NCBI GenBank assembly: GCA_051294905.1
Contig: CM119372.1
Coordinates: 1,986,001 to 2,050,000, forward strand
DNA from: Botryllus schlosseri
Lineage: Eukaryota
DNA: 64,000 nucleotides
Reading direction: 5' to 3'
Translations under genes and position numbers: made by a program
Notes under the pieces: model-generated
Seen by the model: the letters and a program-made list of their open reading frames with translations, nothing else
The model's database searches: none
What the model was told of the DNA's origin: nothing
Shown here: piece by piece, positions 3,471-51,200 of the stretch
Numbering within the stretch: position 1 is the stretch's first letter
How the letters are laid out: each line of letters opens with the position of its first letter

Positions 3471-6400
3471 CCCTATGGGAGCTCAAGACCCACGTTTTTG
3501 GGGGCCTGACGAGGTGCTGTTTCGTTCCTGCCAACGGGTATACGCCCGAAGATGTTTAGTTATTATTTACTGGTCCTACCTTTTCAAGTACACCTCACTC
3601 AGCGAGTCAGCTCTACCGGCAAATCTGATTACGTGAGCAGACAGAAGATAAAAATTGATAACAATATATATGCGATTCCCGATCATACTGACCGATTCAG
3701 CCATGAATTCTAGAAATTTCCTGCGCTTCGCGCGCTTAGGCGACAAAAGCTGATTCACTAAACAAACTCCCAACGAATATGATAAATAGCGGTAAACAGG
3801 GTATCGCCGGAGGGGGGGGGGCTGGGGGGCGAAGCCTCCCATAAGTTCGGTCTATACCCCTATGGGGGCCCAAGACAAAGTTTTTTTGGGGGGCCTGACG
3901 AAGTGCTGTGACGGCCCTGGTTGTATACACCACATGCGCATTTACACTATAATAACAACGGTGCACCGCCGATTTGATCAACTTTTCAAAACGATTGGAC
4001 ACGTTACCTAGCCAAGGTAGATGTAAAAATGCCGGGCATTTGTCTGGTCCATAATTGGGAGGTCCATCCGAACGTTTTAATACTCTTGCGATGGAGCATT
4101 TCAATATATGCTCAGGATAGCCATTTTTTGAGAGGATAGAATGGATCTTATCCAATTCACGTGGCAATTTTTCTGGCGAACAGATGCGCAAGGCCCGTTG
4201 AACCAGAGTTGATGTTAGGTTGAGTTTTCGCCGCTTCGGGCAAAAAGAATCCCAACGGGTATAATGGCCAGTGAACGTCGGCTTTCTATACACTGACGTC
4301 GAAAACATTTTTCCAGATCTCTCAACCAACACGTCTAAAAATGGAAGTGCCAAATCAGTTTCTTTCTCCACAGTAAATTGTAGAGCTGGGTGGAGACAAT
4401 TCAATTTAAAAAAAAACATATTACACTCTCGCTCATTATTGAGAGCAAAAAAGGTGTCATCGACATATCTATGGTAAAGGAGAGGTTTTGGGACGTTTGC
4501 AAACATTTTCTCTTCATGGTACCCCACAAATATATCTGCCAAACTAGGGCCCAAGGGAGAACCCATGGCAATCCCACCGATTTGCGTCTTCAGTGTGCCG
4601 TTAACTCTTGAAAAGAGGCACCCGAAAAGTATTCCAGTTGAATAAATGTTTTACTGCAATGGATGTTGTATTGAAAGTATCTTTCGTTGTAGCCTACTAC
4701 AACAAAATTTAATTGTTGCTACCATTATGCGTGATATAAGTAATGGATTTCATCATAGGTCCAGATATCGTTAAAATATAGTTTTTTCATGTAAAAAGTT
4801 GTCAGTTTTTAAGTCAAAAAGTTTTTTCAGGCCAAACTACTTCGTAAGAACAGACAGTTCCAACCAGAAATGAAGATAAGTAGTACAATTCTGACATTAT
4901 GTGAGAAAAAACCTAATTTACATACACGAGTGCAAAATTTTGTAAAAATGAAGTTTTTTTAAGGTAAAGAATGTCGACATTTTGCATTTTTAGTTCAAAA
5001 TCTTCCGTTTTACGTATAAAATAAATCGCCCTACTCATAACGTTATAAGCACCACTGTCGTATCCAATAATAATAATCTTATTCTGGCCAAAGTCTTGCC
5101 AATAATTAAATACACAGTTGTCTGGTTAAAGATGCCGTCATTCCTATTCTCGACAACCGAATTTTATCCAATTCCACCATCTAGTCTAGTTCATGTCAAA
5201 ACGGACGTCGACACATTGTGAGAAGCGTTCAGTTGATGATCTCCCAATTAAACAGGAGTTCTTAAACTTTTATGCTCGCGGACCCCTTCCCGTTTCGTGG
5301 GCGGTTGCGGACTTAAATAGAAAAAGGTCATGACATCAATCACAACTCTCTTCTGGCTATTCCATGTCAATCATCAGCGAACTAATGACTATAAGACAGA
5401 TTAGTCATAGTCCCACTTACGGCGTCATTAGGTTACCGAAGAACAATCTGGTTTTGTAGTTGCTTGATGATGCTGTTCATCATTTTCCTTTCACCGTGGA
5501 CTTCAGGTTAAGAACCCCCCGCAATAAAATATTTCGCACTAATGGAATGTATCCTGTATCGCTAAATATGAAACATTATTCTAGGACAGACCTGGTCAAA
5601 GTGCGGCCCGCGGAGCCATTCTGAGTGGCCCGCGAAGATTTGCTTTGAATTCAAAACATAACATCTACTGGCCTACTTGGAATGTTGCTGCGTGAGCCAA
5701 AACCACAGGCTGTATAAATCGGCACGGAAATTCGTTTGCTTTCCATCCTGTTCATTAATATGCCGTCACTACGCAGCCTGCTAACGCGCATGAGTAATCC
5801 AGATTCAAAATAAAGTCAATGCAGCAAAGTATACATAAACTAGTAAAGTCACAAGAAGTGAAGCTTTCCATATAGTTTAGTTCAAACTTTCTTTGTTGCC
5901 ATTATCACTTTACGCATTATACGGTCTGTGGTTCGAATTGTTACGATATATACGTTTCCAAATCCCTAATTCGTAAAACGAGTCAATCAGTGCTCGTGAT
6001 TACTATGAGTCACTTCACCATCACCCATAAACAGGCCATGTTATTTTTGACATTTCGGGAAAATGCCAAAACGGCACAAAATTTAAAATTTAAAATGCCA
6101 GAAATAAGGCTTTTTGAAAATATTGATATTTATGAAAGTTTTGGATAAAAATGTTAACAAGTATTGAAATGAGTTTGCATGAAGCGATAAAACAAGTGTG
6201 TAACCATGGTGTCCTATATGTTACAAGCAAATTATTGATTTTTAGACCGCTATTCAAAATGTTGGTTGGTTGTACCAAGTTTGCAATGCCAATTAGCATG
6301 TGACTGTTTGTTACATTGCTGCTTTACCACCAAAATCTGGTTTGAAGGACTTATCAGTTGATTTTTATATCAACCTAGCATACTTTGGATAGTAGAGAGA

Positions 6401-21291: not shown

Positions 21292-23456
21292 ATTCTTTTG
21301 TCGAAATAAGTTATAAACACGCGTTCCACCCGAGACAAAAGCAGAGTTTGCCCCGAGTAATTTGTTCGTAAGTGATTACGCATGACACGTTCACTCGACG
21401 GTTCTTAGCTCCATCATACAAAACAAGTCCTGACAAAAGGCACGAACAAAGCTATCGAGCCGTGAATTCGTTCAAGTTGACTTGACAAACGGATGTCGAG
21501 GAAGTTATTGAACAGTGGCACGAGCAACATCCGAGATCAAATTGCGCGCCGAGCGCACCAACGTATATTGCAAACTTGCCAGCCTCAAATACAAAAATCG
21601 ACAAGCTACTAGCGTCATGCACCCAACCGCCGTGGCGAGTTTACTGCCGGCCCGAAAAATATATCACAATTTTTTTTCTCAATTCCGTAATTTAAGAAGT
21701 TGGACACTGGCCCACTAATTAGAGAAATGAAACATCAAATATTAAATTAATTAGCAGTTTGGAACGTATTTTTGGCATGGTGTCTCAATATACAGTTCGT
21801 GTGAAGCATACACAGACTTTTAAACAAACCACGTTACATTCCAACAATGGAATTAAGCGACACTCGGCAGTATAATAGAGGCTATAGCAAAATGCAACAG
21901 CAAAAAGCAAATTTGATTTACTTCAATTGATACCAAACAAGCACAATCAACTAAACGGTCATTAACAGGATTTCACGATCTTCGCGTTGCAGAAACTTGA
22001 ACAGAACCACGTGTAAATATCTAACATCATCATTAAATGAAGTTTCCAATATTAGCCAACATTCGAGCTGCATACATGAGTCGAAATTATATTTAGGGTT
22101 AATTTTCATTCTTGAAGGTTCACCAGAATTTGTTTGTGATTTGCTACCCCTGCTTTGTGAGTAAGTCATTCACATATTGGCACAGAATTGAATAAAATCT
22201 ACCTAAATCTATATTTTAATATACCCCATAGGGACCTTAATACGAGCCAGACTATCAGATCCATTTATACATAGATTTAACACGATCAATGTATTAAAAT
22301 TTAGAATATTGTCCGTTTTCAAAATATCCCTCTTCTCCTCCATTTTGTTTACCTCTCTCGCCTTTTGCCAGTCAGAGAGGTCTAAAAGGTTGAGAACCAC
22401 TGTGTTGCACTAGAAATATGTCGTTTCTGCTTGGGCACCTACGATGACTGCTCATCGCAAAATTCAACTTACAGCGAATTTTCATTTCCATGTACTGTGC
22501 TAAGACAAATTGCAGCACTCCAAGCAAAGAAGACCATTTCGACACACCCTATTGGACTTACCCTTACACCCATCTCTAATAGCGGGACGCAGTTTCATTC
22601 TCACCACGTGTTCCTGCATGAAGTCCGCGGACGGGTTAGGACCTCATTCTGCTTCGAAAGGCATTTTTAATTCTCCACACTCTGTGAAAATATTTGACTT
22701 TTACGCATTGGTGTGACGGCACAAAACAGGGTTGTAACCAAGTCACAAGGTTAGAGTCAATCTTATTTATATAATATTGACTCGTAGTACAAATCTAGAC
22801 ATGTCACAGAATATAACATATCTGTGAAATCGTTCTCGACCCACAGCATTGTCACAAAGTGCAATGATATAGGTATGGTCGAAAAAGCACCAAATTACGA
22901 TCTAGAACTAACATGATATTCTTTGTGGTCGCATAAAAGGTACATATTTCAACTTCGCACATCTTTCATACTGCCATGACGGACTAGTGATACTCAAAGC
23001 TTTATACTCGATTCCGGATGAAATCCCTCAGCCCAGCCGTAGTCTTTACAACCCTGACAAAAAGTATGCTACTGTACCCGCATATGCCGTGCATTTTACC
23101 ATGACTTCCAAGGTAACAAGGCCAAAGGCGTACATGTCGATGCGTAGAAATGCGTCTTTTTGAAAGCTGATCGCGCCTTCCAACACTTTAGGAGCCACAT
23201 ATCGAAAAGCGCCCACCTGCAGATACACATACATAGCTAAACATTTTTACAAATCAGACTACAATTACTTACAATTACAAGTACTGAGCTCTCAAAAACT
23301 TTGGGACAGATTCACAACTAAAGTCATGTTCAGTTCACATCAAATCAACTAAGAATTTGAATTATAGCCACACGCAGTTTCTTTGCTTCAAATTTCCGGT
23401 AGATTAGAATCAGAATTACTGAATTAATTGAAACTTGAAAATGAACGTATGTTATG

Positions 23457-23622
23457 TAGGGTTGCATTTAAACAAATATATTTTCAATTGTCAATGCCGC
23501 TTCACTATGACGTCACAATTGACTATTGGTGACGCCATGGCTTCAAAAAAACATGTCGTATACAAGGGCCTTGTTTTAAACATGTTTGTTTTTAAGTGAT
23601 TTTGGTTTTAAATGCAACCCTC
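23457..23622. mobile_element. 166-bp hAT-type MITE upstream of the peptide gene
   Basis: TSD ATGTTATG at 23449-23456 and 23623-23630; TIR TAGGGTTGCATTTAAA / TTTAAATGCAACCCTC. Confidence 0.85.
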
Positions 23623-23772
23623 ATGTTATGATAATCGTCGAAAATACTTCTGTAGGCATAATTGCATTATGCATCAAAATATGACAATATGGTGCCGTAA
23701 GTCCGGATAGACCCGTCGTCAAGTGTAGGCCCCATGTATAATTTCCGCTGATAATAATTCCGGCGCAATGAC

Positions 23773-23780
23773 TATATAAA
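23773..23780 (+). promoter_or_regulatory. TATA box of the peptide-precursor gene
   Basis: TATATAAA about 60 nt upstream of a putative 5'UTR intron donor (GTGAGA, 23839) whose acceptor TTTTACGCAG ends at 23907, 7 nt before the ATG. Confidence 0.6.
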
Positions 23781-23914
23781 GAGCGAGTCATATCGGCACA
23801 GATTCGATCGAGAGCTACTATAGCACTGGAACGACACTGTGAGAATGGATTGCGAATTACGCACCTTGTTCAAGGTGGTATGTTGAGTCTCATCTCGTTT
23901 TACGCAGATTCATC

Positions 23915-24184
23915 ATGCAGCTGAACACCGCATTGATACTTCTCGTTGTCGGCAGTCTTGTCCTACAGACTGACGCCTGGCACAGCACACGCTCGCGTAG
24001 GTCGTACCCTCAGTACCCTGGTGTCGGGGACCGCGGCTACGCGATCCGCTCGCGTAGGTCGTACCCTCAGTACCCTGGTGTCGGGGACCGCGGCTACGCG
24101 ATTCGCTCGCGTAGGTCGTACCCTCAGTACCCTGGTGTCGGGGACCGCGGCTATTACGATGTCGATGAGGACCATAAGAACTAA
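23915..24184 (+). CDS. Secreted multi-copy peptide precursor (signal peptide + 3 x RSRR-SYPQYPGVGDRGY)
   Basis: 89-aa ORF with ATCATG start context, hydrophobic LILLVVGSLVL and a TDA|W signal-cleavage-like site. Three 57-nt repeats start at 23990, 24047 and 24104. Acidic tail; GTAAGT donor directly after the stop. Confidence 0.8.
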   Translation: MQLNTALILLVVGSLVLQTDAWHSTRSRRSYPQYPGVGDRGYAIRSRRSYPQYPGVGDRGYAIRSRRSYPQYPGVGDRGYYDVDEDHKN

Positions 24185-24849
24185 GTAAGTCTTTTTCTAT
24201 GATGAAATAGTTATAATGAACCACCTGCCACCGATTTCAGTAGTGAGCTGAGATATATCATGGGTTGGCAACATATGACCCGCGACCGGATTTGGAGCGG
24301 CCCGCAGATAGTTTGAGAGTCTTGCATGGTAATGTGACCTGCGTCCACAGTCTGTCGCAATCTCTCACTGCTTGTTTACTATTAACAACATTACCAAGAC
24401 AAAGCTGCGTACCAATATAACTGACGTTCACGTGCAGTCTTAGGGTCCGACATGCGGCCAGAGTTTAAAGAATTTGTTGACAACTTTGATTGATCATGAC
24501 CAGAGATCTTTCATTGACTTCAGCAGCTATTGAAGTTCATTACGGCAATTAATTCATATTAAAATATTGAAATCGCCCAAACGCACTAAACTAAAAGACG
24601 CACATGATTTCAAATTGGTATTTCTTCACTGGCAATTTAAAGTCTCATGGTATACATGGCCTAAAGCTGTATATGTCGTCTTGGTGCGTCGCGGCGCGGT
24701 AATAACCGAAGCCGAAATGCTCATTTGTACAACTAATGCGTATTTTTTATTTTTTATTTTTTTTGGGGGTGAGTACCCAATAAGGCAGATAACTGGCAAC
24801 ATAAAATCGCGACTCGTTCCTTAAATTCACACTTTTGTTGAATTGTATA

Positions 24850-26075
24850 TTCATATCGTGTGTCCGTCAAACCATTGTTGTACCAACGATATGTAGACGA
24901 TACTTTTGTCATATTCAGGAATGAGTTGGACTGTGATCAATTTCCCATTCACTTAAACTCGCTTCACCCGGCTCTGCGATTCACAATTGAAAAAGAACGA
25001 AATAACTCATTGTCATTTTAGACCTTTTAGTCGAAAAGCATGATACCAATAAATTTGAAACATCCATCTTCAGGAAACCGACATTCACTGGCCAATACGT
25101 TCGTTGGAATTCATTTAGTCCAAGACGCAGAAAAATCAAGCTCACAGACCCCCTCGTGCATATAGAGCGTTGATGATATGATCGGGTAATAAACTGACCT
25201 TAGAACTTGACAAGATCCGCAAAATCTTACTTGATAACGGTTACCCTGAACATGTCATCAACCGCGGCATAGAGAGGACAGTAACGCTATTCAACGCAGA
25301 AAAGTCAACAGAGCCTACCGAACGAACAACCAAAGATGTTTACATCCATCTACCTCGGTTAGGCCCTAGTTCTACCCGCTTTGAAAAGCAATTGATTTCA
25401 GCGGTCAATAAGTGTTACGACACAGTGAAGACCAACGTTATTTTCACGATACCGCAACTGCTCCCTGCAACTCGTAAAGACGTGCTTCCCGCACTTCGAC
25501 AAAGCAATGTATAGTTTACGAATTTAAGTGTCACTGTGATTGTGGCTACGTGGGAAGAACGTCAAAGCGCTTGCAGGAACGCATAAATCAGCATGTCCTT
25601 GGATTCATTAGAGCACGCTCGGTGAAAAGCTCACCCTTAACTCATCCGCTCAAGATTGATGCGGAACAATCAAAGGCCATAGATTCTGCAATTGGCAGAC
25701 AATTGTTGGTTAATCCCGCATATGTGCGAAAAATTATCGAGACGACAGATTTCGCATAGTCGGAAAGGGTCGTTCACACTTTCATTTGTGTGCTTGGAGT
25801 CGACTTATATAAAAATACACCAGCCAAGGCTGTGTCAACAAAAAGAGTGAGTGCATCATCTAAAAATAGTACATTGAACGCTCTCGTATTCAGTATTTCA
25901 TGGTGGTGACGTCATATTTTGTGCTACGATTGTTGATATAAGCTGTTCTTTTCAATTCTCTACTGGTAGCTGACGATTACCCCTGACGAGTGTCAGCCGA
26001 AAATATTCGGGTTCATTTCAATATGAATATACTATTCAATTGTATATTGAAGTTCTGTACCTCCAAGAAGCTGGT
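24850..26075 (+). mobile_element. Decayed Penelope-like retroelement (RT C-terminal part, GIY-YIG, pLTR)
   Basis: Frameshifted PLLYQRYVDDTF, FRKPTFTGQY, NGYPEH, YEFKCHCDCGYVGRTSKRL; 3' hammerhead motif. Confidence 0.88.
25979..26012 (+). ncRNA. Minimal type I hammerhead ribozyme (Penelope pLTR)
   Basis: ACCC-CTGACGA-G-TGTCAGC-C-GAAA-ATAT-TC-GGGT: intact core, ACCC/GGGT stem I, palindromic AATATT stem III. Confidence 0.75.
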
Positions 26076-27679
26076 TTGTTGAATTCTGCGTTAGTTAGCT
26101 ATAATAAAAAGGTAACTCTCCGGCTCAGCTCCCGAAATAGCCACCGGTCGTCTCAGTCGAATTTTACTCTATCTTTAACCAAAATTCTCAAAAAAGAGAA
26201 CATTTGGGCGTCCTCCGAGGTCAAAGTCAAAAAAGAGGACAAATCCTCCTAAAAGAGGACGCATGGTAACACTACTTAAACTACCGGCACGTGAAACATA
26301 AGTTCCTGGGAGTCAGCATATGCAAGCATCGGATTTTTTGATCATCCATCCGCTATACAGGCCTAAATTTCATGATTTCATATTTGTTAAAAAAAATCAG
26401 CATAATCGTAGCCATTGACGTCAGATCATTCATGGATTTGCGTAATCTAACATAACTAAAGCTTGAAATCTACCCTTCCCCCCGCCCCAGTATGGAGTTG
26501 AGTTTTTCTTGCACTGTACATTGCACAAGTACATTCACACCCGTGTACCACCCCGGATATATGTGTAAATGGGTATGAATATACATCCTTTAGTACACCG
26601 AAACCAGAACCCACCTTTAACTTACACCGCGGTATAAATCGAACACAACATTGTAATCCAAATTATGTTTGCCCATCATTACGTAGGACTTGGAACCGTG
26701 ATATAATTCTGATTAGGTTATGTTTTCGTGTACACTCTTAGGGTGTGAGTGGGCACTTATTTCGCTAAAAGTTTGGGTTCAGCTGAGCTGCTATCCATTT
26801 CGTTTCGAAAATCCATGACTTCTAACAGTTTAAATTTCAATCAAACAAAGATCTAATTAATATATCCACCTCTTATGGATCGCACGATGTAAATCTTTTA
26901 TTGGTTCGGGTAAATGGTATAGGCCTACATTCAGTAGCATAAATATACTGGATTTACTGACCACTCATATTTTCTCATTTTCAGAGTCTTAAGACCAGAG
27001 TCAACGGCAAAGTGAAAAGCACGTATAAAATAAAAGTGCCCAAAACCAGATATCTCGAGCAGTATTGCATATCCGAGTCATTGTGCCCATTACTCGTCAG
27101 TATAGTAATCAGAGGATAAATAAATTAATTGGTATTGCTAGTCAGCTACGCTACTTTGTAGACAGTAGTGCTCGCTCTTGCCTCCCGACAGGGATACCAT
27201 ATTTTAAGATCCGAAGTCTTGATCGTACCCGGTCGGATTTATTAAGGCTCGGTGCGTTATACAAAGGGCATCATTCTCAAAAGTTGTACAGTACAGTGCC
27301 GTTTCGAAATTGACAAGCAATGCGCTGCAGGATACAACATCTAGTTCAAAATATGTTGTGGAGAATAACCCGAGCTATCAGTATAAGTAACAGTTTATTA
27401 ATATTTTCATCATTTCAAAACACCACAAAACTGCGATACAATGTGAAGATAGGAAGGTGTCGAGACGAGTTGGAGTAGCAAGCGTGACGGGAGTGTTATA
27501 ACGGAGAATTGGCAATCCGAAATAACGCCAAATTCATTTGACATGAATTAAAATAAAGTATCGTCGGTGGATATTTCGCGATGACCGATACAATGAAAAA
27601 CGTTTTGATTTGACAGATTTTGTCGAATGTTAGTTTGCAATGAGAACTCAGGGATATATAGAACTATTGTTCTACTATC

Positions 27680-28117
27680 CAGTGGTCGGGAACCTTTTTC
27701 GACTGAAGAGCCATACTAGCCCAATATTTCCAATTGTAACTCCCAAAGAGCCATACATGTCAATCAACTGTTACGTCACAATTGAAAATTCGTGACGTAT
27801 TGGTAGCACTAATATATGGGATTCGTAGTATATGCGCCATAATTATGTGCCGTGCCCACATGCATAAGTGGAACCATACATGAGGATTTTCAAATGGGGG
27901 GGGGGGGTACGAACCCTCAACCCTGGTTACCCCACTGTCTTAACCTCTAAAAGACATGTTTATGCTGTCACGAGAATATTTATTCGGGCCGTCATGAAAA
28001 TTTACCAACAAGTTGCAGCAATAGTGAATTAAGTGCAAAATTAAAATTTGTCAAAGAGCCATATCTTATACCCAAAAGAACCAGAAATGGCTCGCGAGCC
28101 ATAGGTTCCGACCACTG
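27680..28117. mobile_element. hAT-type MITE (short member of the 35877-37600 family)
   Basis: TIR CAGTGGTCGGGAACC / GGTTCCGACCACTG; flanks share TACTAT. Confidence 0.75.
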
Positions 28118-31100
28118 TACTATACATTCATACGTCCTTACTACACCATCTACGGCGAGGCCATTTTTCTTCATCGCCCCCCGTACCGTCCCCTTCCCCC
28201 CGAGCTTTTCCGCCCCTTCAAAATCTAAATCGTCCGCTGGGGGCGCTGGAGACAAGGTTAAGTACGAACCACTGCTGTAATGCCAAGCGCTATTCCATTC
28301 TCTTGACCGATAACCACGCAAATAGCTGAGGAATGTAGCTAATTTTTGTCTGGAACTTGCATATATCAATTCGGTATCTTGCCCGTCCCTGCCCTAGCAG
28401 TTCACCTCAGTTTATTATTAAATCGCTATCTAATCAATCCACCACAAGATTCCGATCCAATGAAAAGATAGGAAGGTGTCGAAATGACTTGGAGTAGTCT
28501 TTGAAATCAGACACCCACCTTGGCCTCGGCGGAGTAAAGAAGAGTCATGCACACTGTATGGAAAGTAGCAATAGAAGATAATAAAGACAAACAACAAATG
28601 AGGTGTCATATGATGGTAGGCCAGGTCGATATATCGGATCGTGGTCCAGCAATCTCGGGCTCTCTGACTTATATTTATTCAATAGAGCCTGCTTGTATTT
28701 CGATTTGAATGTTGACATGCTCGTCGACTGGCGGATAGCAAGCGATATACTGTTCCACAGTCCAGGTCCGGCATATTTGATAGAGCGAAGATCTTTTAGG
28801 TCTACCGTATGGCAATTGTACGACGTGGCCGCGCGTGTGTCGTTTTATGCCCTTTTGATTCCGAGGTAAAGAAGTCATTTGAAATATTCGGGGCAAAAAC
28901 CGCAGTGGAACTGACGCATAAACTTGGCAATTTCCCGTTTCCGAATCTTTTTAGCTGCGACTTGTTGGTTGGACGGACAACCAGGCCCTAGCTATGATAC
29001 GGCGTAGCATGTAACCGCATGCAGTATTAAAGCAGTAGATTTCGGCTTGCACAATTTAGTCGTCATGTGGTTAAATACTTCAAAAGATAACGATATATAG
29101 CACAAAAAATCGACAAGAAAGGTGGACATAGAATACGAAAATAGGCAAAAACAAAGAGAAGCCACAAAAATGACAATAAATTTAAAAATACATTTGACAT
29201 ACGACAGGTTACTAGCTTTCTGAGTCGCGATCCATAATTCCAATATCGAAAACTGTAATCCGGTAAAATGTAACAATCAAAGTATTTTGTACTGATTGTG
29301 ATTCTGTTGAACTGACAAGTTTCATAAGAGTCATACAAAGCGGTTGTTACAGCATTGAGATACTCAAATATGCAGTGTTACGAAGGAGATTTCATGCCAT
29401 TCAAACGTAAAAATGAATACACATTACAACATTTATTGCAACTGGATCAACATAGTCCATTGATCTTAGGTATGAAGGCTTTTTGAATCAAGATAGTTGT
29501 CTTGTGAATGTACCAGACCGGTTGTAACATCAGTCGAATGCAAGGTACTGGTGTAAGAATGAGAGTCGTTGAGAATGACATTGTTAGACGTAATAAAACC
29601 ACATCAGATGCTGTTACAAGTTGGATTTACAAAACAAATGGTGTTGCAAGTTGCATTCATTACATACTCGATTGCAAACCTGACTGAAACGGGTCTTTAT
29701 CAGTAACCATAATTGACACGATTATCAAAGTGATTTGATCACCAGAATCACCGAACGTATCCGATCCCGACACACAAATAACATACTAAGAAGAACAAAC
29801 ACCTTAGCCAAAATGCAACATCTTGCCAACTAGACCACCCTCGACGTGCATTAAATGAGAAAATAAATGAAAATATGAAGAACATTGGAAACCATTCAAG
29901 GTTACGGCATCGCATGAACTGCAAAGCTACAATCATTGTCGCATTATACATGAAATTTAGGAGAAATCTTGGGACATGACACTCCGGAAACAGTCCTCAT
30001 TCGAGTATAATTTCACAACTGCATTCATTGCAGTAAAGAATTTATCAACTCGAAGACTTTTCGTGTGCCCCTTATCGAGAGTTAACGGCATAATAACAAG
30101 CATACAGAAGGAGATTCAAACTAAAACCAAATTGGCAAAAGTATGACGTAATAATACAATAATAAAAAATTAACGCTAGGCAAAGTCAGCTGTACCGATA
30201 GTTATAACAAGAGACGAGAGAAAATCAGATTATACAATAATGCACGGAAGACAACACACAGACAAATAGCGGTATATATCAATGGGATATTTTGAGAATA
30301 TATAGAAACTCTTTCTGCCGACATTCGATACTCGAGAATGAAAATCTCGATTGTCTTTTCCACTGTGGATGGCTGTGAGCCTCAATTGGGCATATCGCAG
30401 CATACGAAACACGTAGCACAAAGCAACGTTCGTTAGTAAAAATCAAGTATCTGTGAACCTACAGCATTGTCGCAGTATGCAATGAAGTGGGCTTGTCCGA
30501 ACAAATGCCAAATTACAGACACGTGGAGTAGAAATGGCGCTATATTTTTGTGGGCACGCAAAAGGTTCACATTTCAACTTTCCACATCTTCCACTTGAAG
30601 CATAATACTCAATTCAAAATTGAATTACATGGACACTCAATTTTGCCCAGCCCTGCTGACCGCCACTAAACAACGAACGCGTTATATCTCACGCTCAAAT
30701 ATACACACCCAAGCAGTGTCTAGAATATGTTTTTGAGGCATAAGGCATGGGAAACGGACTGAAAACCACGGCTTTTTCAAAGTCGGTCAATTATTTACAA
30801 CCCTAATGTCTAATTGGCTATAGGTGCTTAAATAACTCGTGGCGAAATATCCTGTCGTGGCAATCCGAACAAATAACATCCCTCAGCGAAAAATCAATTG
30901 CCACTGAAGAAATACCAATTTTGAATCGTGTTCTTCTTTTAGTTAAGTATGTTTATGCTATTTCAAAATCTTTTGCCTATATACTATATTAACATGTAAC
31001 GATGGGGGAGGGGGGGGCGGAGCCACCAATAAAAGTTAGGTTTATCACCCTATGGGGGGAGGCAAATACCAACGCTTTTGGGGGAGGCTGGCGAAGTGCT

Positions 31101-32174: not shown

Positions 32175-35100
32175 TTAAGGAATCGCCGCGACTGTATTCT
32201 CCATCACTGAGCTCATAAGTGACGAACCCTCATCGACAGTTTCAGATGTCTCCGAATCGCTGTCTTCCTCATCCCGAATCCTACACTTCAGGATATGATG
32301 CGTCACCAAATGATGAATAAGATACGCAAATATTTGAGTCATCGGTATAACGATAAAAACCAGAATCGAACACAAGATAGCCCCCCTTGCCGGTTCCTTT
32401 GACCAATCGAATAGATCCGGATAAATAGCGTGAATCACGCCCGTCCAATGCAAGATTAAAGTAAAGAATATATACGCGACTAGTACGATTTCTGCGTATA
32501 AGAATCGGAGAAGTCGAACAGGTAGGGCGCTGACGCACAAATCGACGGTCACGATCGCTCCGAGTACGGCTTGACGATGTAAGCTATCTCTCAACGTGCC
32601 CTCCCGCAAAGGAACGAGGAGGAACGTTACTGCGAACGATAAAGATGTCGAGACAGTCTTGAGGATCAATGTGGCTCTTTGGTACCAAAATAAATGATCT
32701 GAAATCAATACAAACTGTTATTACTCCTGTTCTCGGTTATAAAATATCAGGTAGGTACAGTGTCGTAGGAGCATATGCTGGCGCTCATGGCTTTCGTTGA
32801 AGATGCCGCCCAAGAAATAGTTTCAATCTTCTTAATTATATTCACTGGAAACCTGGTCTTGTTGACTAAAACAAGGTCATCACCGCCACCCATGGCGCAG
32901 AGCCATAAACGCCAAGTGGTTGCTACGCCACTGGGTAGGTAGGTATTAGGGGGTAATGGGGCTTAGCTACTCGGCTTTTTGCCCCAAGACGATATCTGGC
33001 GACAATGACTCCTGTACTATTTCAATAGTTTACAATTCTTATATATCCTTCCCACTTGAAATCGTGAATTCGATGACTGGTCATATAGTATGACCATCTG
33101 TGAGTATAGGGACTCTGACGTTAGTGGTCCTTTATTCCACTAGACGATTAATTCTGTTGCAGGGTTGTAACCAAGTCACAATGTTCAGGGTCACAAGTAA
33201 ATTTTACTTTTATAGTTTTTACTACACTCAAGTCGAGTCATTTTCAATTCACCACCGGGTCTAGTCTGAGTCTAAGTCAGGGGGCAACGGGTCGAGTCGG
33301 AATCATCGTGTTGAGACTCGAGTCCGAGTGCAAGTCATGGTGTTCACTGTTTATTATCGAGATCAAGTCAGGTTCAACTGACTTCTATGAAAAAATGCAT
33401 TTTATTGACCAATTTTTCAGGTAACAGTCCTGATACACAAGACTTGTATCATGTCATCTAGAATGTCTCCAGTAATATGACTTGATGGAGTCATACGCAA
33501 TGTCCGACTCGAGTCATTACAACCCTGCACAAATAAACGTTTTCCACAATTATCGTCCTGTGGGAGATAATAGTCTGACAGTACCTTTGGTAAATACGGG
33601 GCCTTAGACGCATTCATGCGATAGCTGGTTGTTATGGGGGCGAATCGAGACCATTTCTAGGCACTCTGGTTTAAATCAGTGGTTCCCAACGTGGGCGATA
33701 TCGCCCCTCAGTGGGAGATTTTGAGAAACAAGGGGCGAAAACACCAAAGGGGGCGATTGAGGGCGGCAGGGGGCGAAAATGTTAGAACGTCCAGTGAAAC
33801 ATGGCGTATTTAATTATCACGGCCAAAAATGCACGTGAAGACAGCTTATTCTGCACATGACGCGAAAGTTGACTACAAAAAGGTCAACACAACGGAAAGT
33901 GGTCGAGGAAACCGGTTTTTCTAGCACCGTCTCGGAAAATGACCTTTTAATAGTCAATTCACCAGCGATCAGAGTTAGGTGAATAAATTCCCCATTTATA
34001 TATATATCCTCTTTTTCGAGTCCGTAAATATGTAGGGACGGAAATTTGTGTCGAGCTTTGTAAGGGAGCGATTAGTCGAAAAGGGTTATGAACCACTGAG
34101 AACGAGTGACTTGAAACTGACACATGAAAAGAGAGTCTGGATAGTCATTAGGACTAATTTACACATTACGAATCGGTGTTTATTGAGCGGTGCTTTCACG
34201 ATGTGAATAGACCCTCTTCACTTCTACAATCTTCACCTGCGTGGGTAGGATGATTTTTAACCACGAGCCCTTCGACCGCCACGGCAAAGCTCGCCATAAG
34301 ACTCAATATCAAAATCCATTCACTCCAGTGATTGAAGTAGGCGTAGTAAAACTTCCAATGCGGCGTTTTAGAACTTGCTACCATCCCAGAGATTGTCCAT
34401 ATGATCCAGTACAACAACAGGAAACCACGATATACCACATATGTAATTCTTCTATCTGACCACTGTCAAAAAGAAAGTAGATTTGAATCAGATGTAGGGG
34501 AGATGTGGTACCGATGGATCAAAAATTGGAAAATGGTCGCTGGCCCCGAAATGTTCAGCCGAAAACAGCAGATCTTTTGCTGGCTCAGCACTTTGATACA
34601 AGCTCTACCTATCGCGCACATATACATGAATACCCGTCTTTTCAAAAAATATTTATGGACGTTCAAAAGTTGTTGCTCGAACGTGTCATCGGTCCCCACC
34701 CGGTGGGTCCAATGACACACGACCCGGCGACCTATGACACATATACCCTAAAAAACTCAAATGTGACTACTTTTCTTGCTCAGTATCATAATCTAAGCTG
34801 CTGCAAGCCAAAGAAGAATGTTTGGTCGCAACTGTTAAAAAATAGAAAAAATTATAACTCAAATGTTGTCATAAAATCACGTTTCGATTTAGGCTCGAAC
34901 TTATAAATTTCTGGGTACATACATATTGCCCGAAAATCGACAGTGTGACTTCCAAATACCTCGTTATAGCGATAAAACATCATATCCAATTATTAGATAA
35001 AGATTTTCTGTACGTAGGCATGTTTCATTTGTTTCATGATTAGTATGCTTGATTATTTTGCTTGATTTGGCTATTGTATCATAGGTCCCCACCCTACGAA

Positions 35101-45200: not shown

Positions 45201-48200
45201 ATCGCCTAGGCCCAGGTAGGTGTCTGATTTCAAAGATTACTCCAAGTCGTTTCGACACCTTCCTGTCTTTTCACTGTATCGAAGTCTTGCGGTGTTTTGA
45301 AATGATGAAATTCTTAATAAAACTAATACTGATGGTGATACTAGAAAATCTGCAGCTTTTCCAAATTAGATCAGAATTAGAATAATAGCTGCACAGTTTG
45401 TTCCAAATTAGATTCGAATTAGAAATACTGAATTCTCAAAAACTCATAAATTGATTTAAACTCCGATTTCGAAAGAAATAGAACAAAAATCAAGTTCAGT
45501 TCAGGTCAAATTAGAGCTCATTCTTATTATCATGCGGATGACAAACGTCTGTACACAAATCTTGGCTCGATTCGCACTATACATTTGAGCTGTATCACTT
45601 TCAGTAAAACCTGAAATTAGATTAGAATTAAAATTGGAAAATACAGACATGTCACAAATCATATTGGAATCAGAGTACCGGAATTTCTCTCTGATTAGTC
45701 TTTTCAGTGGTTTTGAGAGACGAGACGAAAAAACTGCTGAAGTCACTACTTGAGAAAGTGGATGCAGTCTATACTCAAATACTACCGAAAAGTAACAGCA
45801 TAAAGATTAATTATGACTTCTAGTATTTGGGAGGCTATAAAGATAAGTTGAAGTTGATAAGGGGGTGATGAGTCAAAAAAAGTTTAGGAATCACTATCTA
45901 GTTAGACAGCTAGAATTATCTAGTTCTCCTAATGTTATTGTGGTAATTGACATATTAAATCTGACGAGAGTGATCACTTTCATTTACACCCTTTTCTTCG
46001 AGCAATAAAGGGTGATTCGATCGGTTTTAGGAAACTTGGTGGAAACGTTATCAAAGAGGGAGATATCGGCCCTCACGTCGGATTCAGATGTCTCAATGCA
46101 AACCAGAGGGGGCGGGCTGTCCCACATTGTAAAGACTACAAGATTCGGTTCTGCTGCAGTAAGGGTGAGAAAGTCACTCACAGGATGAGTGAGACTTACA
46201 TGAATCAACAGTCGACTACGCTTAATTCGTTTCATTCGGCCAAAAATACTCGGGAACTGAACAAAATAAAAATTGCACATAAAAAACTCCATCTAATTCG
46301 GTCAAATCTCCGCTTAATTCGAACACAGGGTCGCAATCATTATCGTTCGGTTATGATTACACAATTCACAGTACTTCGTTGGTTTTAACACAATGTGAGT
46401 GATTATGATGAAACAAAGTCAACCCATCCATCAACAATCGACAATGAACTCATATAACGCCGTGCCAGCCTTGCCAGCCTTGTAGGACAGACTGGGACAG
46501 AAATGTTTTCTGCCTAGCTAAAAGCATTTTTCCTACTGTTCTGTGGAATAGGCTACTTATATCACGCGAAAATAGTCTATCAGCCGTTAAAGAATTACTG
46601 TACTATTTTAACCCTATATGTGTGTTTTACACAGTAATATAATAAATAGTATATGATAAATTCTTGAATTGTTTCGTATCGTAATACAGTACTATACAAT
46701 GCAACTAACCTGAAGGTAAATAGATGCGATACAATCAATATAGTTTGTATTATACTGTTGATTTTAATTACAACGAATGTTCATCGTTAAAATAGGTTAC
46801 CTATAAACAGTTCAGTTTTAATATACATTTTAATAATATATTCATATTACAAATATATTAAAACCCGAAGCTTTTCGAGCCAACACTCTTCAGGGGTAAT
46901 CGTCGGCATAAATAGAATTTCAAAAACTTGCATATAACTACATTGCATACATCCAATTGTGACGTCATAGAAACAAAACAACATCAAGTGCAGACAAACC
47001 GCGAGCGCAGCTAGTGGCCAATTTTTAGCTGAAGCAAACGTTCCTTCGGCTGGCATAAGCGTGGTTGATGGATCTTAATTAATGCCGATTCCAGCGCGGA
47101 CAAGTGGAAAAGTGTGCGCCCTCTACCCAAAATTGAGAATCTGTCGTCACTATAGTTATTGGCGCAAGTAGCATGCTCAGCTAAATGCCTGCCAATGGCA
47201 GAGTTCATTGCCACGGCCTGATTGTGTTCCAACACCCTTAGGTCAGTTTCAGTTTCAGCGGCCTGTCCCTGGGAATTTAATGTACGTAGTCTAATAACGC
47301 GCTGTACATGTTGTTTGATACGTTCCTGCAAGCGCTGAGTTGTTCTTCCTACGTACCGACAATCACAGTGGCACTTAAATTAGTAAACTATATTGCTTTG
47401 TTGTGAAGCGGGAAGAACATCTTTGCGCGTTGCAGGAACTAGTTGTTTGGTGGTGAATACAACATTCGTTTTGACGTTGTCGTAACAACGATCTACGGCG
47501 GAGATCAACTGTTTCTCAAAACGAGAAGAGATGGGACCCAACCACGGTAAATGTATGTATACATTATTCTCAGGGCGTTCGTTCGTGTTTTGGGAATTGC
47601 TGGCATTGAAATTGTTGAGTTTTCTGTCCATAGAGCGCTTGATGATATGTTCCGGGTAACCGTTATCAATTAAAATTTTCCGGATATATTCGAGTTCCGA
47701 GTTTAATTTTACATCCGAACAGATCATCAATGCTCTATGTACCAATGTTCCAATTAAATTCAGTTTACGGTGGTTTGGGCTGGACGAATTCCAAACCAGA
47801 TATTGTCCGGTAAATGTTGGTTTCCGGTACACAGAAGTAACGATGTTAATACCCCGTTTCTGTACAAGAACGTCCAAGAACGGTAACGAGCTGTCGCACT
47901 CTTTTTCAAGTGTGAATTTCAATGAAGGATGTAGCGCATTCAAGTTAGTCAGAAAATCGTCAAACTCTGCCTCGTTATGGCAGATGACGAAGGTGTCGTC
48001 CATATATCGACGATACAAAAAAGGTTTTTTTTGATTGTATCAGCTGCAAATAATTTGGTCACATGGAATCCCACAAATATATTTGCTAAAATCGGGCCGA
48101 GAGGGGATCCCATGGCTAAGCCATCGGTTTGTCTGTACATAGTATCATTAAAACTAAACTCAACAGAGCAAGTGGCCATATTCAAAAGTTCAACCAAAAC

Positions 48201-51200
48201 TTTACGCGAGAAAGAGGGTGGTGGCAAATCACTATCGTATAGCGCGCAAGCACAGATATCAATTGTCTCTTTCAACAGAACGTTCGTGAAAAGACTAGTG
48301 ATATCATGAGACCCGAGGAACATGTTCGAATGCGGCAGGTTGGCAGGTTGGCAGGTTCAGTTTAGTAAGAATTTTCATCATTTCAAAACACCACCAACCT
48401 GCGATAACAATGAAAAGATAGGAAGGTGTCGAAACGTTTTGGAGTAATCTTTGAAATCAAACACAATAGCGAGATTCCAATGCTTGTGCACTTACGTTGG
48501 CCTGTAAATCCATCAGTGGAAAGTAAGTATATTTATCAGATTTCCACCACAGCACGGGGTGCAGATTAGGTAAGCGGTACTTTCGGGTAACAAATTGAGC
48601 TTTCACACGCATTACAATGAGTGAAATGAGTCCCATACACCAATTCTTACACGAATATATATATATATATATATATCAGGGGTGCAGTGGGTTCTGTCAA
48701 CGTCCATAAATTTTTTGGGATTTCTTTGGAATGCACATGAACATAGTACCAAGAAGATCCCTGGGGTATATATTCGTCAGAATCGATGTATTGAACTCAT
48801 TTTCACTCATATGAAGGGTTTGAAAGCACAGTTTCGTATCTGAACGTGCCGCTAGGGTGAATATCAAGGGAAAAGATTTTAGTTTACAGTATGTTCTATG
48901 ACAAATTCATCTGGTCTATTTCAGCTCCCCCCGTGCCAGAGTGTGATGGTACGTGGACAAGATTTTATGACGACGACAACGCAAGAAACTCGGGCGATCA
49001 CGAGACTCTGGATCGTCTGACCAAGAAATACCGAGAAATCTGTTCCAAACCGTCTGCGGTTGATGTTCGTCTGGTTCATCCGGGACGTGGCGGAGCTGAC
49101 TATTGGTAAGATACAGACTTGGACAACTAGATAATTCTAGTTGACTGATTAGGATAATTGGGGGAAATGTGAGCAATCTAATTCTGATCTACTTCGTGAA
49201 ATGTTTCTATACTAATACTTCTAATCACGTGCTACAGTAGAACAGCATAATAAGAGACGAGCCAAGCTTGCTGTAAAAACATTCGCTATTCTCATACTCA
49301 AGAGAATGAATTCTGATTTGATATGAACTGCATGCAGAACACGATTCAATGACCAAGTTTCAGTGAATTCAGTAATTCTACTTCTAATCTAATTTGAAAA
49401 AGATGAAAATTTTCTAGTTTTATGAAAAGACGCATCGCAGTCAGATTAGAATTAGAATTATAGCTGTACAGTTTGTTTTCAAAGTATATAGAATTAGAAG
49501 CAGCGGGATTACCATATTGATTACGTCAATAGTTTCTAGAAGGGACATATGTTCAACTTGATAAGGGCGAGCGACGAGCCAAAACAGTTTTTTAACCACT
49601 GCCACAATCAGGAGTTCCAAATCTTTTTTTTACCCCGTGGCTACCTTAGGCCCAAGGGGCCATGGCCCACAGGTTGAGAATTCCTGGTTTAATTACATTA
49701 GTCGAATTATCTACAGTTGTAGGCTACCATAACCGTGTCTCTGACGAGACTGATCATTTCATCTGCGCTCTTTTCGTCGAGTAATAAAAGATGAGTCGAT
49801 TGTGTTTTAGGAAACTTGGTGGAAACGTAATCAAAGAAGAGGATATCGGCCCTCACGTCGGGTTCAGATGCCTCAATGCAAATCAGAGGGGGCGCGGCGT
49901 CCCACATTGTAAAGACTACAAGATTCGGTTCTGCTGCAGTAAGGGTAAGAAGTCACTCACTAATTCAGAGAGACTTCTATGAAACTACAGTCGACTATAC
50001 GCTTAATTCAGACTCCGAATAACCCGGAGTTTATTCGTTCAAAATACTCGGGAACGAAACAAAAGTCAAAATTGCACCTAAAAAATGTCGGGTTGATTCG
50101 GACACTTCTCCGCTAAATTCGTACACAGGGTCGCAATTATTATCGTCAGGTTATGACACAATAAACCAGGGGTCGCCAACTCAAAACGGGTCGCGGGTCA
50201 CTTTCAAATTTCGTAGCGGCCGCTGGCAGCATGAATTCAATATCGGTGTAAACTAGGCACCACGTTTTGAATCTTTACGTCAGTACAACGCCGTGCTACC
50301 AAACATAGGCGATGGGCAATGGGTATAGTGACCACAAAAGAAGTAATGGTAATATTGTATTAAAGGAATACAAATACAACAAAAAATCATTATCATCAAT
50401 TTTATCATATTTTGAACTCTGAGCTGTGCAACCAGAATGCCGACAATCCCAACGGATAGTTTGATGGCATGGAAGGTTATGACTGTTGATGAGAGAATTC
50501 TATAATACGAATTCCGGACTATATACAAAATGTGAATTTGATGTAAATCGTGCGGAGTGGGAAAAAATTTTTAGTTGACCGCAGCTCCGCGCCCCCAAGT
50601 TTGAGAACCACTGCCCTATGCCGTTTTCTAAGCGTCTCGGTCTTGGCAATGTTTGGGCCATTGCACGTCAAGGCAATATGTCCAGCTCATTCATATGAGC
50701 TGATTATTGTCCATCGATGGAATGCTGCTGCTATCGCCAAAGCCGTTTTTGCTAGTGACGAATAGTGATGTTGGGCACAGAGTAGCTTATTTTGAAACAA
50801 CAATGACAATATGTTGAAACTGTAGACGATTTCAGCATTTCAAAATGGTTTTCTTAGCTTTCTTCTGACATCTCAAATCAAGTCGCGGGCCGCAAAATAT
50901 GACCTCGCGGGCCGCGTGTTGGTGACCCCTGCAATAAACAGTACTTTGTTCGTTTTAACACAAGATTATGGTGAAACAAGGTCGATCCATCCATTAACAA
51001 TCGACAATTAACTCGTATAAGGTCGTGTCATTCGCTTTTATTTCGGTACAATTGCGTCCGTCTTGTAGAACACAACGGTACAGAATTGTTTTCTGCCTAT
51101 AGCACTAGCTAGTATTGTAGTCCTTGAACAATTACTGAACTAATTTTATAGTAGCATACTCTCTACTAAGAGAAAAGAGTGTGAATTCACACCCTAAAGG

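Follow-up and report, generated by a model that had tools for sequence, protein, structure and literature searches.

A spliced gene for a putative secreted peptide precursor with tandem RSRR-headed units in Botryllus schlosseri, and the multigene family to which it belongs

A short gene of Botryllus schlosseri encodes 89 residues in which a signal-type leader is followed by three near-identical tandem units, each beginning with RSRR, and by an acidic tail. With a probability of about one half, the gene is young and lineage-restricted, belongs as a divergent member to a multigene family that evolves fast, and encodes a secreted effector precursor that is disordered and lacks cysteine. That the gene is real and that its product is secreted can be held with high confidence. 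The kind of protein is already known, as fast-evolving linear secreted effectors and polypeptide precursors have been described; the gene is unannotated and the family undescribed. The gene lies in a stretch of 64,000 nucleotides of contig CM119372.1 (assembly GCA_051294905.1), here called the window, and positions without a contig name are counted from its first letter.

Transcript and open reading frame of the window gene

The transcript is spliced from three exons, and its coding sequence lies wholly in exon 2. RNA-seq data from two raw read runs (X17 and X21) and two contig sets were mapped on positions 23700-27300 of the window. The joint from 23838 to 23908 is spanned by 24 X17 reads and by one contig from a separate, older study (X3), and the joint from 24184 to 26985 by 34 X17 reads with 28 distinct start places. 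A preliminary description had proposed a gene at this place, and the GT..AG junction reads in X17, with one junction also present in X3, bear out that it is real and gives rise to a spliced transcript. The features are:

23773..23780, plus strand: TATA-like box TATATAAA, about 30 nt 5' of the start of the conserved 5'UTR
23804..23838, plus strand: exon 1, 5'UTR only, without ATG (5' end approximate, 3' end exact)
23839..23907, plus strand: intron 1, 69 nt, GT..AG, within the 5'UTR (joint 23838 to 23908)
23908..24184, plus strand: exon 2, 7 nt of 5'UTR and the entire CDS, ending with the stop codon TAA at 24182-24184 (placed by both joints)
24185..26984, plus strand: intron 2, 2800 nt, GT..AG, beginning straight after the stop codon (joint 24184 to 26985)
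26985..27055, plus strand: exon 3, entirely 3'UTR, containing AATAAA at 27029-27034 (3' end approximate)
23915..24184, plus strand: open reading frame of 89 aa with the layout MQLNTALILLVVGSLVLQTDA/WHST/(RSRRSYPQYPGVGDRGYAI)x2/RSRRSYPQYPGVGDRGY/YDVDEDHKN
23915..23977, plus strand: signal-peptide-like leader MQLNTALILLVVGSLVLQTDA, 21 codons (hydropathy, T/A at -3/-1, predicted helix, family alignment)
23978..23989, plus strand: spacer WHST, its W aligning with the post-leader aromatic residue of most family members
23990..24046, plus strand: repeat unit 1, RSRRSYPQYPGVGDRGYAI (Tandem Repeats Finder)
24047..24103, plus strand: repeat unit 2, equal to unit 1 apart from its last base, ATC to ATT (Ile)
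24104..24154, plus strand: repeat unit 3, partial, RSRRSYPQYPGVGDRGY, homologous to the lone unit RSRPVWPAWPGDAKRGY of the nearest paralog
24155..24181, plus strand: acidic tail YDVDEDHKN, aligning with the family tail motif RGYYD.DEDES

Over the CDS bins 23942-24183 the X17 read depth, with mate directions summed, is 52-64, against at most 0.3 in the intron bins 24184-24546. Since depth falls from 64 and 52 over the CDS to this level just downstream, the X17 signal stems from RNA and not from DNA. The library is unstranded, with mate directions about equal, and the plus-strand orientation therefore rests on the GT..AG ends of the introns. DNA similarity with other family members begins at 23804, the start given for exon 1. 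At the other end, read depth is present in bin 26967-27087 and absent from 27088-27208, and the exon 3 region is common to the family members L004, L007 and L011. In run X21 the window gene is near-silent over the CDS; 214 loose read ends at the exon-3 acceptor come from a paralogous tail ending in ...ESKGYYDQ. The TATA-like box probably has promoter function, and the paralog carries CATAAAGAGCGAGTCAT at the aligned position. A GATA-like TGATAA at about 23749, taken by eye for a promoter motif, was rejected because it is not conserved in the paralog.

Tandem Repeats Finder reports a period of 57 nt at 23990..24153, with 2.9 copies, 99% matches, a score of 321 and no indels, and the sole mismatch between the full units is synonymous (ATC/ATT, Ile, at 24046/24103). 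The architecture as first described (three 57-nt units with one synonymous difference and RSRR starts, together with the leader, WHST and YDVDEDHKN) is exact in both the open reading frame and the Tandem Repeats Finder result. An open frame is weak evidence for this ORF, as other frames of the repeat are free of stops too, for example that of a 103-aa ORF on the minus strand (23913-24224) opposite the repeat. The coding frame is fixed instead by the plus-strand GT..AG introns, by the first ATG of the spliced mRNA, which is that at 23915, and by a leader common to the paralogs. The minus-strand ORF was rejected as a gene; it is a by-product of the stop-free repeat, and the orientation of the splice sites gives a plus-strand mRNA. 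The sequence R-X-[KR]-R occurs three times in the 89 residues, at residues 26, 45 and 64, with Ser next each time, and a search of the ORF for a Gly-basic amidation site found none. In the mature product R accounts for 17.6%, Y for 14.7%, G for 13.2% and P for 8.8% of residues, with no Cys; the net charge is +9 in the head and -3 in the tail. The DNA encoding the mature part (23978-24184) occurs once in the 495.5-Mb assembly.

Intron 2 holds a reverse-transcriptase fragment (24860-25021) and a repeated element (about 25878-26119). The latter is a dispersed repeat that many transcripts contain: its depth is very high in all four runs and contig sets, with a summed contig depth of up to 44,583 in X3, and many of its reads continue into unlike sequence. 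Rfam gave no match for it. Elsewhere in the window, ORF fragments resembling Penelope-type retroelements were recognized by eye at 482-955, 3736-4650, 24860-25021 and 47011-48356; they include reverse-transcriptase-like stretches (YRRYMDDTF...) as well as a GIY-YIG-like module (FKCHCD.RYVGRT...). A membrane-protein exon at 32175-32717 on the minus strand has a weak match to Rost (rolling stone; E 0.0024, below the cut-off), and ESM Atlas gave this ORF scores of at most 0.90 from mixed phyla. The ORF at 45951-46388 on the plus strand carries a Mucin2_WxxW repeat, which scores above the cut-off at 28.6 bits.

The gene family and its evolution

Of the two parts that the preliminary description singled out for a genome search, the leader belongs to a family of 42 loci and the core occurs at a single locus. 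The lone precursor first described is therefore a divergent member among 42 loci. These loci, which are search matches merged by coordinate, lie on seven contigs (C1, C2, C3, C4, C5, C10 and C14), mostly in tandem clusters; ORFs were translated for 33 of them and 21 members were aligned. The common plan is a leader, with the consensus MQxxTxLILLVVxGLVLQxDA, then an aromatic residue and arginine clusters, then a tail that is mostly acidic and Tyr-rich. The arginine clusters stand a few residues apart (3-6 residues in most members), often with Tyr-Tyr-x between them, as in WWARRRRYYARRRRY. Among the 21 aligned members R26 is invariant, R27, R28 and A21 are each present in at least 90%, and the leader is common to all. 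Since the window gene belongs to this family, its RSRR is the local form of the family-wide arginine cluster.

Tails are exemplified by RGYYGMDEDESKGYY... and by DRDVENREMHEDMDQVL, the latter in five near-identical copies on C4. Heads are net positive in 27/27 members and tails net negative in 23/27, one head (P0001) having been mis-parsed by the script. Tail charge does not scale with head charge (r = 0.11), so that a strict charge-neutralizing role of the tail is unsupported. Many members extend only 33-50 residues past the leader, and tandem repeat expansion recurs in L026, P0001 and the window gene. Several family loci contain in-frame stops. Between close paralog pairs, pN outside the leader (0.036-0.086) is lower than pS (0.046-0.168), which, on few sites, argues for constraint on the family ORFs.

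The individual clusters differ in character. At C14:19.16-19.27 Mb (L007-L010, L048 and L049) the proteins have 163-187 aa and consist of about 15-20 KGYYD(G/E)(A/S) units after a WWARRRRYYARRRRY head, WYDGAK replacing GYYDGAK in many units of L010. Five near-identical copies with a spacing of about 15 kb (L028-L032) occupy C4:13.519-13.580 Mb; their head LWGRRRRRYYSRRRYGDRD is invariant, all amino-acid changes fall in the acidic tail, and pN is below pS. The cluster at C5:19.21-19.52 Mb (L037-L040 and L042) comprises at least seven matches and has a leader distinct from that of other members: four of five ORFs start with MNSKLLVAVFLVVALLVVENEA or a near variant, and L037 differs. Its ORFs carry Arg runs (of 11-12 in four), then GGE, then a short variable tail, and secreted oligo-arginine peptides of this type are unusual. 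A third copy on the window's contig (C2:2172972-2175024, L004 and L017) is split by about 1.8 kb: L017 has a leader and an Arg-rich head and then a stop, and a tail ORF ending in ...ESKGYYDQ lies about 1.8 kb off, without an in-frame leader. The X21 reads that end in ...ESKGYYDQ-stop and are joined to exon 3 may come from this split copy or from a paralog allele.

The nearest paralog lies on the same contig, 149 kb distant. Its identity to the window gene is 82% in the 5' flank, 89% in exon 1, 90% in intron 1, 90.5% (nucleotide) in the leader and 78% at the start of intron 2, compared to 53% in the mature-peptide part, which indicates that the product-coding part changed faster than the adjoining non-coding DNA. 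Hypervariable effector families show this pattern, which could reflect diversifying selection or repeat turnover. In the leader, pN/pS against the paralog is near 0.8, on very few sites. BLASTP aligns the last unit and tail of the window gene, RSRRSYPQYPGVGDRGYYDVDED, with the lone unit of the paralog, RSRPVWPAWPGDAKRGYYDADED, which suggests that the 19-residue unit is ancestral to both genes and was triplicated in the window gene alone. Judged from the sequence of the units, the triplication appears very recent. The preliminary description had looked to homologues that keep both the frame and the RSRR sites, and this held in part: frame and leader are kept, but the nearest paralog reads RSRP where the window gene has RSRR, and RSRP is not a furin site.

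Outside this genome, 17 of 1.84 billion representative proteins matched a profile built from the 21 aligned members at E <= 0.001. The family layout is present in 6 of the 10 matches listed among these 17, all unnamed singletons from Logan and ENA assemblies. Two of the six relatives were compared with B. schlosseri loci and are only 49-62% identical to them, and are therefore assigned to other species. On these sequence comparisons the family seems to be older than B. schlosseri and unannotated. No named relatives turned up in the protein-library and profile searches. An exact sequence look-up of 10 family proteins in a collection of 15 billion proteins found 0/10. Against a protein library of 5.8 billion clusters, where E-values are weak for short proteins, the ORF had no match at E <= 0.01 and the member L011 none at E <= 1. 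For the 89-aa ORF, Pfam returned sub-threshold rows only and ESM Atlas a best score of 0.77, which gave no lead; Rfam had no match in positions 22000-29000 of the window. Peptide motif strings were found in no paper in a search confined to motif strings in main text, and a concept search of the literature yielded only the myticalin paper and general reviews. The statement that no described family is recognizable thus stands, as the searches made brought up no match among Pfam families, named proteins or paper texts.

Predicted processing, candidate roles and alternatives

Residues 6-16 form the hydropathy maximum (2.99), and positions -3 and -1 before Trp22 are taken by T and A. In an AlphaFold2 model made with the family alignment, residues 2-26 form a confident helix, and pLDDT is below 50 for nearly all of residues 31-89. 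From hydropathy, the residues at -3/-1, the predicted helix and conservation in the family, we infer that the leader is a signal peptide; the hydrophobic core, the T/A pair and the confident N-terminal helix agree with its first description as signal-like. The three furin-type RSRR sites pointed out at the same time are likewise present (n=3, with Ser after each) in a region that is predicted to be disordered.

Cleavage by furin-type proprotein convertases and subsequent trimming by carboxypeptidases are well-established steps in the maturation of secreted precursors. Predicted removal of the leader after Ala21 would give a product of 68 aa, 8.0 kDa and net charge +6. Most likely, furin-type convertases would then cut after each exposed RSRR in the secretory pathway, and trimming of the C-terminal basic residues would leave a 6-mer, WHSTRS, two 17-mers and one 22-mer. 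The two predicted 17-mers, SYPQYPGVGDRGYAIRS, are identical (1886.0 Da, net +1); the predicted 22-mer, SYPQYPGVGDRGYYDVDEDHKN, would carry the acidic tail (2574.6 Da, net -3). The predicted cores are thus nearly neutral (+1), unlike classic cationic antimicrobial peptides. Cleavage of the precursor at RSRR is probable. For the window gene, in which the units are long, the multi-core reading probably is the most natural one, and the very recent triplication of the 57-nt unit would have raised the dose of one peptide, making the gene a "protein operon" comparable to Baramicin A and apidaecin. We infer cleavage, trimming, secretion, release of the SYPQYPGVGDRGY cores and any modification of tyrosine.

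For the family as a whole, the arginine clusters may be the cationic active part, instead of or besides being cleavage sites. Cutting at each would leave fragments of 3-6 residues in most members, which speaks against their being simply cleavage sites. Across the family, the cationic arginines may therefore be the active part and the acidic tail a pro-piece, by analogy with myticalins. Or the reverse may hold, with a head that is a pro-region and a tail that is the product.

Myticalins and modiocalins are linear cationic antimicrobial peptides of mytilid mussels. In the available parts of their descriptions, myticalins form a hypervariable, multigenic family in which a signal peptide precedes the cationic mature peptide, which is followed by a dibasic site and then by an anionic extension (PMC12294457; PMC5577615). 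The family described here is likewise a cysteine-free, secreted, large, lineage-restricted and clustered multigene family. As far as these partial descriptions go, it and the myticalins both have a signal peptide, a cationic part rich in Arg, Tyr, Pro and Trp, and a C-terminal extension that is anionic and of low complexity; in both, the mature part is hypervariable next to conserved regions, and some copies are pseudogenes. The window gene also shares three exons, of which exon 1 is 5'UTR only. However, according to the same descriptions a phase-1 intron at a conserved position divides the myticalin CDS between exons 2 and 3, whereas in the window gene the entire CDS is in exon 2 and exon 3 is 3'UTR. 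They further give myticalins a conserved Lys-Arg (or Arg-Arg) site, often with Gly before it (PMC12294457; PMC5577615); here the last Arg cluster adjoins the tail (mostly ...RRR/Y[DG]...) as a run of 3-12 Arg with no preceding Gly, and tails are often Tyr-rich repeats, unlike those of myticalins. The likeness is one of layout, taken from descriptions; the window gene is not a myticalin, though the family resembles myticalins in layout.

The likeliest role of the family, by analogy with myticalins, is that of an exocrine or host-defence effector: its duplicates are clustered in tandem, leader and flanks are conserved while the mature part is hypervariable, and a cationic head is paired with an anionic tail. 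The host-defence role taken singly is tentative, at rather less than even odds, and is a label by analogy.

In its tandem units, the window gene resembles Baramicin A of Drosophila, in which, according to the part of the source available, IM10-like peptides stand in tandem between RXRR furin sites, as is likewise reported for apidaecin of the bee (PMC8423362). Like these, it has near-identical tandem peptides, each after R-X-R-R, behind one signal peptide, and the released peptides are not strongly cationic: the charge given there for IM10-like peptides is +1.1 to -0.9 (PMC8423362), and that of the cores predicted here is +1. The window gene differs in having three 19-aa units and no long flanking domains such as Baramicin's IM24 or IM22, as far as these are described. 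Homology to either was ruled out: PF08026 ("Bee antimicrobial peptide") scored 15.2 bits on the ORF, against a cut-off of 25, and the IM10-like motif, in the form given in the part of PMC8423362 available, is absent from the 89-aa ORF when read by eye.

It is unlikely that the product is instead an unprocessed structural or adhesive protein, in which the intact disordered chain, rich in Arg, Tyr, Gly and Pro, serves as a material. Such a chain could be part of a coacervate, glue, tube, egg case or mucus, held together by Arg-Tyr contacts and possibly by Tyr-to-DOPA cross-linking, as in mussel foot proteins and tube-worm cements. K/Y/G-rich repeats are typical of DOPA adhesives, and these resemble the family in being secreted and disordered, built of repeats, and rich in Tyr that has basic residues next to it. 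In favor of a structural role, the mature product is Arg/Tyr/Gly/Pro-rich, Cys-free and disordered throughout by prediction, and repeat expansion has recurred in L026, P0001 and the window gene. The long GYYDGAK relatives on C14, with 163-187 aa of about 15-20 KGYYD(G/E)(A/S) repeats, are the best fit to this idea and to DOPA adhesives. However, in the secretory pathway one would expect exposed RSRR and RRRR sites to be cut. Many members, with 33-50 residues after the leader, are also very short for a material, and convertase-like Arg clusters are not known to be a feature of DOPA adhesive proteins. No tyrosinase or other modifying gene is seen in the window either, as the preliminary description had already remarked: the ORF survey lists only retroelement, Rost-like and Mucin2_WxxW ORFs.

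It is improbable that the gene encodes a neuropeptide or hormone precursor, from which prohormone convertases would release identical SYPQYPGVGDRGY cores acting on a receptor. The window gene does have the classic multi-copy layout of neuropeptide precursors, a signal peptide and identical repeated cores bounded by basic convertase sites, and it has a small mRNA with moderate expression. This reading is weakened by a core that is unique to one locus and a mature part that has outpaced the introns. The core has no counterpart in the paralogs, nor do the protein libraries searched contain one; a Gly-basic amidation site is absent, and the nearest paralog, with RSRP, is without the cleavage site. 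A large, hypervariable family of 42 loci in tandem clusters is also unlike neuropeptides, which are constrained by their receptors.

Least probable of these alternatives is an expressed but decaying or neutral duplicate, a redundant member without a specific role in which replication slippage would have triplicated the 57-nt unit. Almost identical and so very recent repeats, a leader pN/pS of near 0.8 in the comparison with the paralog (few sites), the split third copy on the same contig, in-frame stops in several loci and nearly absent X21 expression would fit it. Against it, the frame is intact across three units whose lone difference is synonymous, the promoter, the splice sites, the start context and the stop have been preserved, and the gene is clearly expressed in X17, its spliced form occurring also in X3.

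Meaning for the family and the organism

Beyond the preferred reading of a divergent effector precursor in a fast-evolving family, it is possible, though doubtful, that the window gene and its 41 relatives constitute an undescribed animal superfamily of secreted oligo-arginine/aromatic peptides with bioactive Tyr/Pro-rich cores. Such a superfamily would be marked by heads such as WWARRRRYYARRRR or by an Arg run of 11-12, and its arginine clusters would serve for cleavage by convertases and, at the same time, be the cationic part that is active. Its tails would evolve by repeat birth, the window gene being a freshly born "protein operon", and the Tyr/Pro-rich cores, possibly Tyr-sulfated or hydroxylated, would be a new class of secreted bioactive peptide.

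If the reading of the window gene as a member of a family of secreted effector precursors is true, a whole unannotated family of secreted linear peptides would be added to an animal genome. The claim is directly testable, since the predicted products have exact masses. Gene prediction routinely overlooks families of this sort, which yield new antimicrobial and other bioactive peptides. The three-fold duplication of the unit, seemingly caught almost at birth, would be useful for understanding the origin of multi-copy peptide precursors. In B. schlosseri, clustering in tandem, conservation of leader and flanks beside a hypervariable product, and the birth of repeats together would represent the evolutionary pattern of immune effectors.
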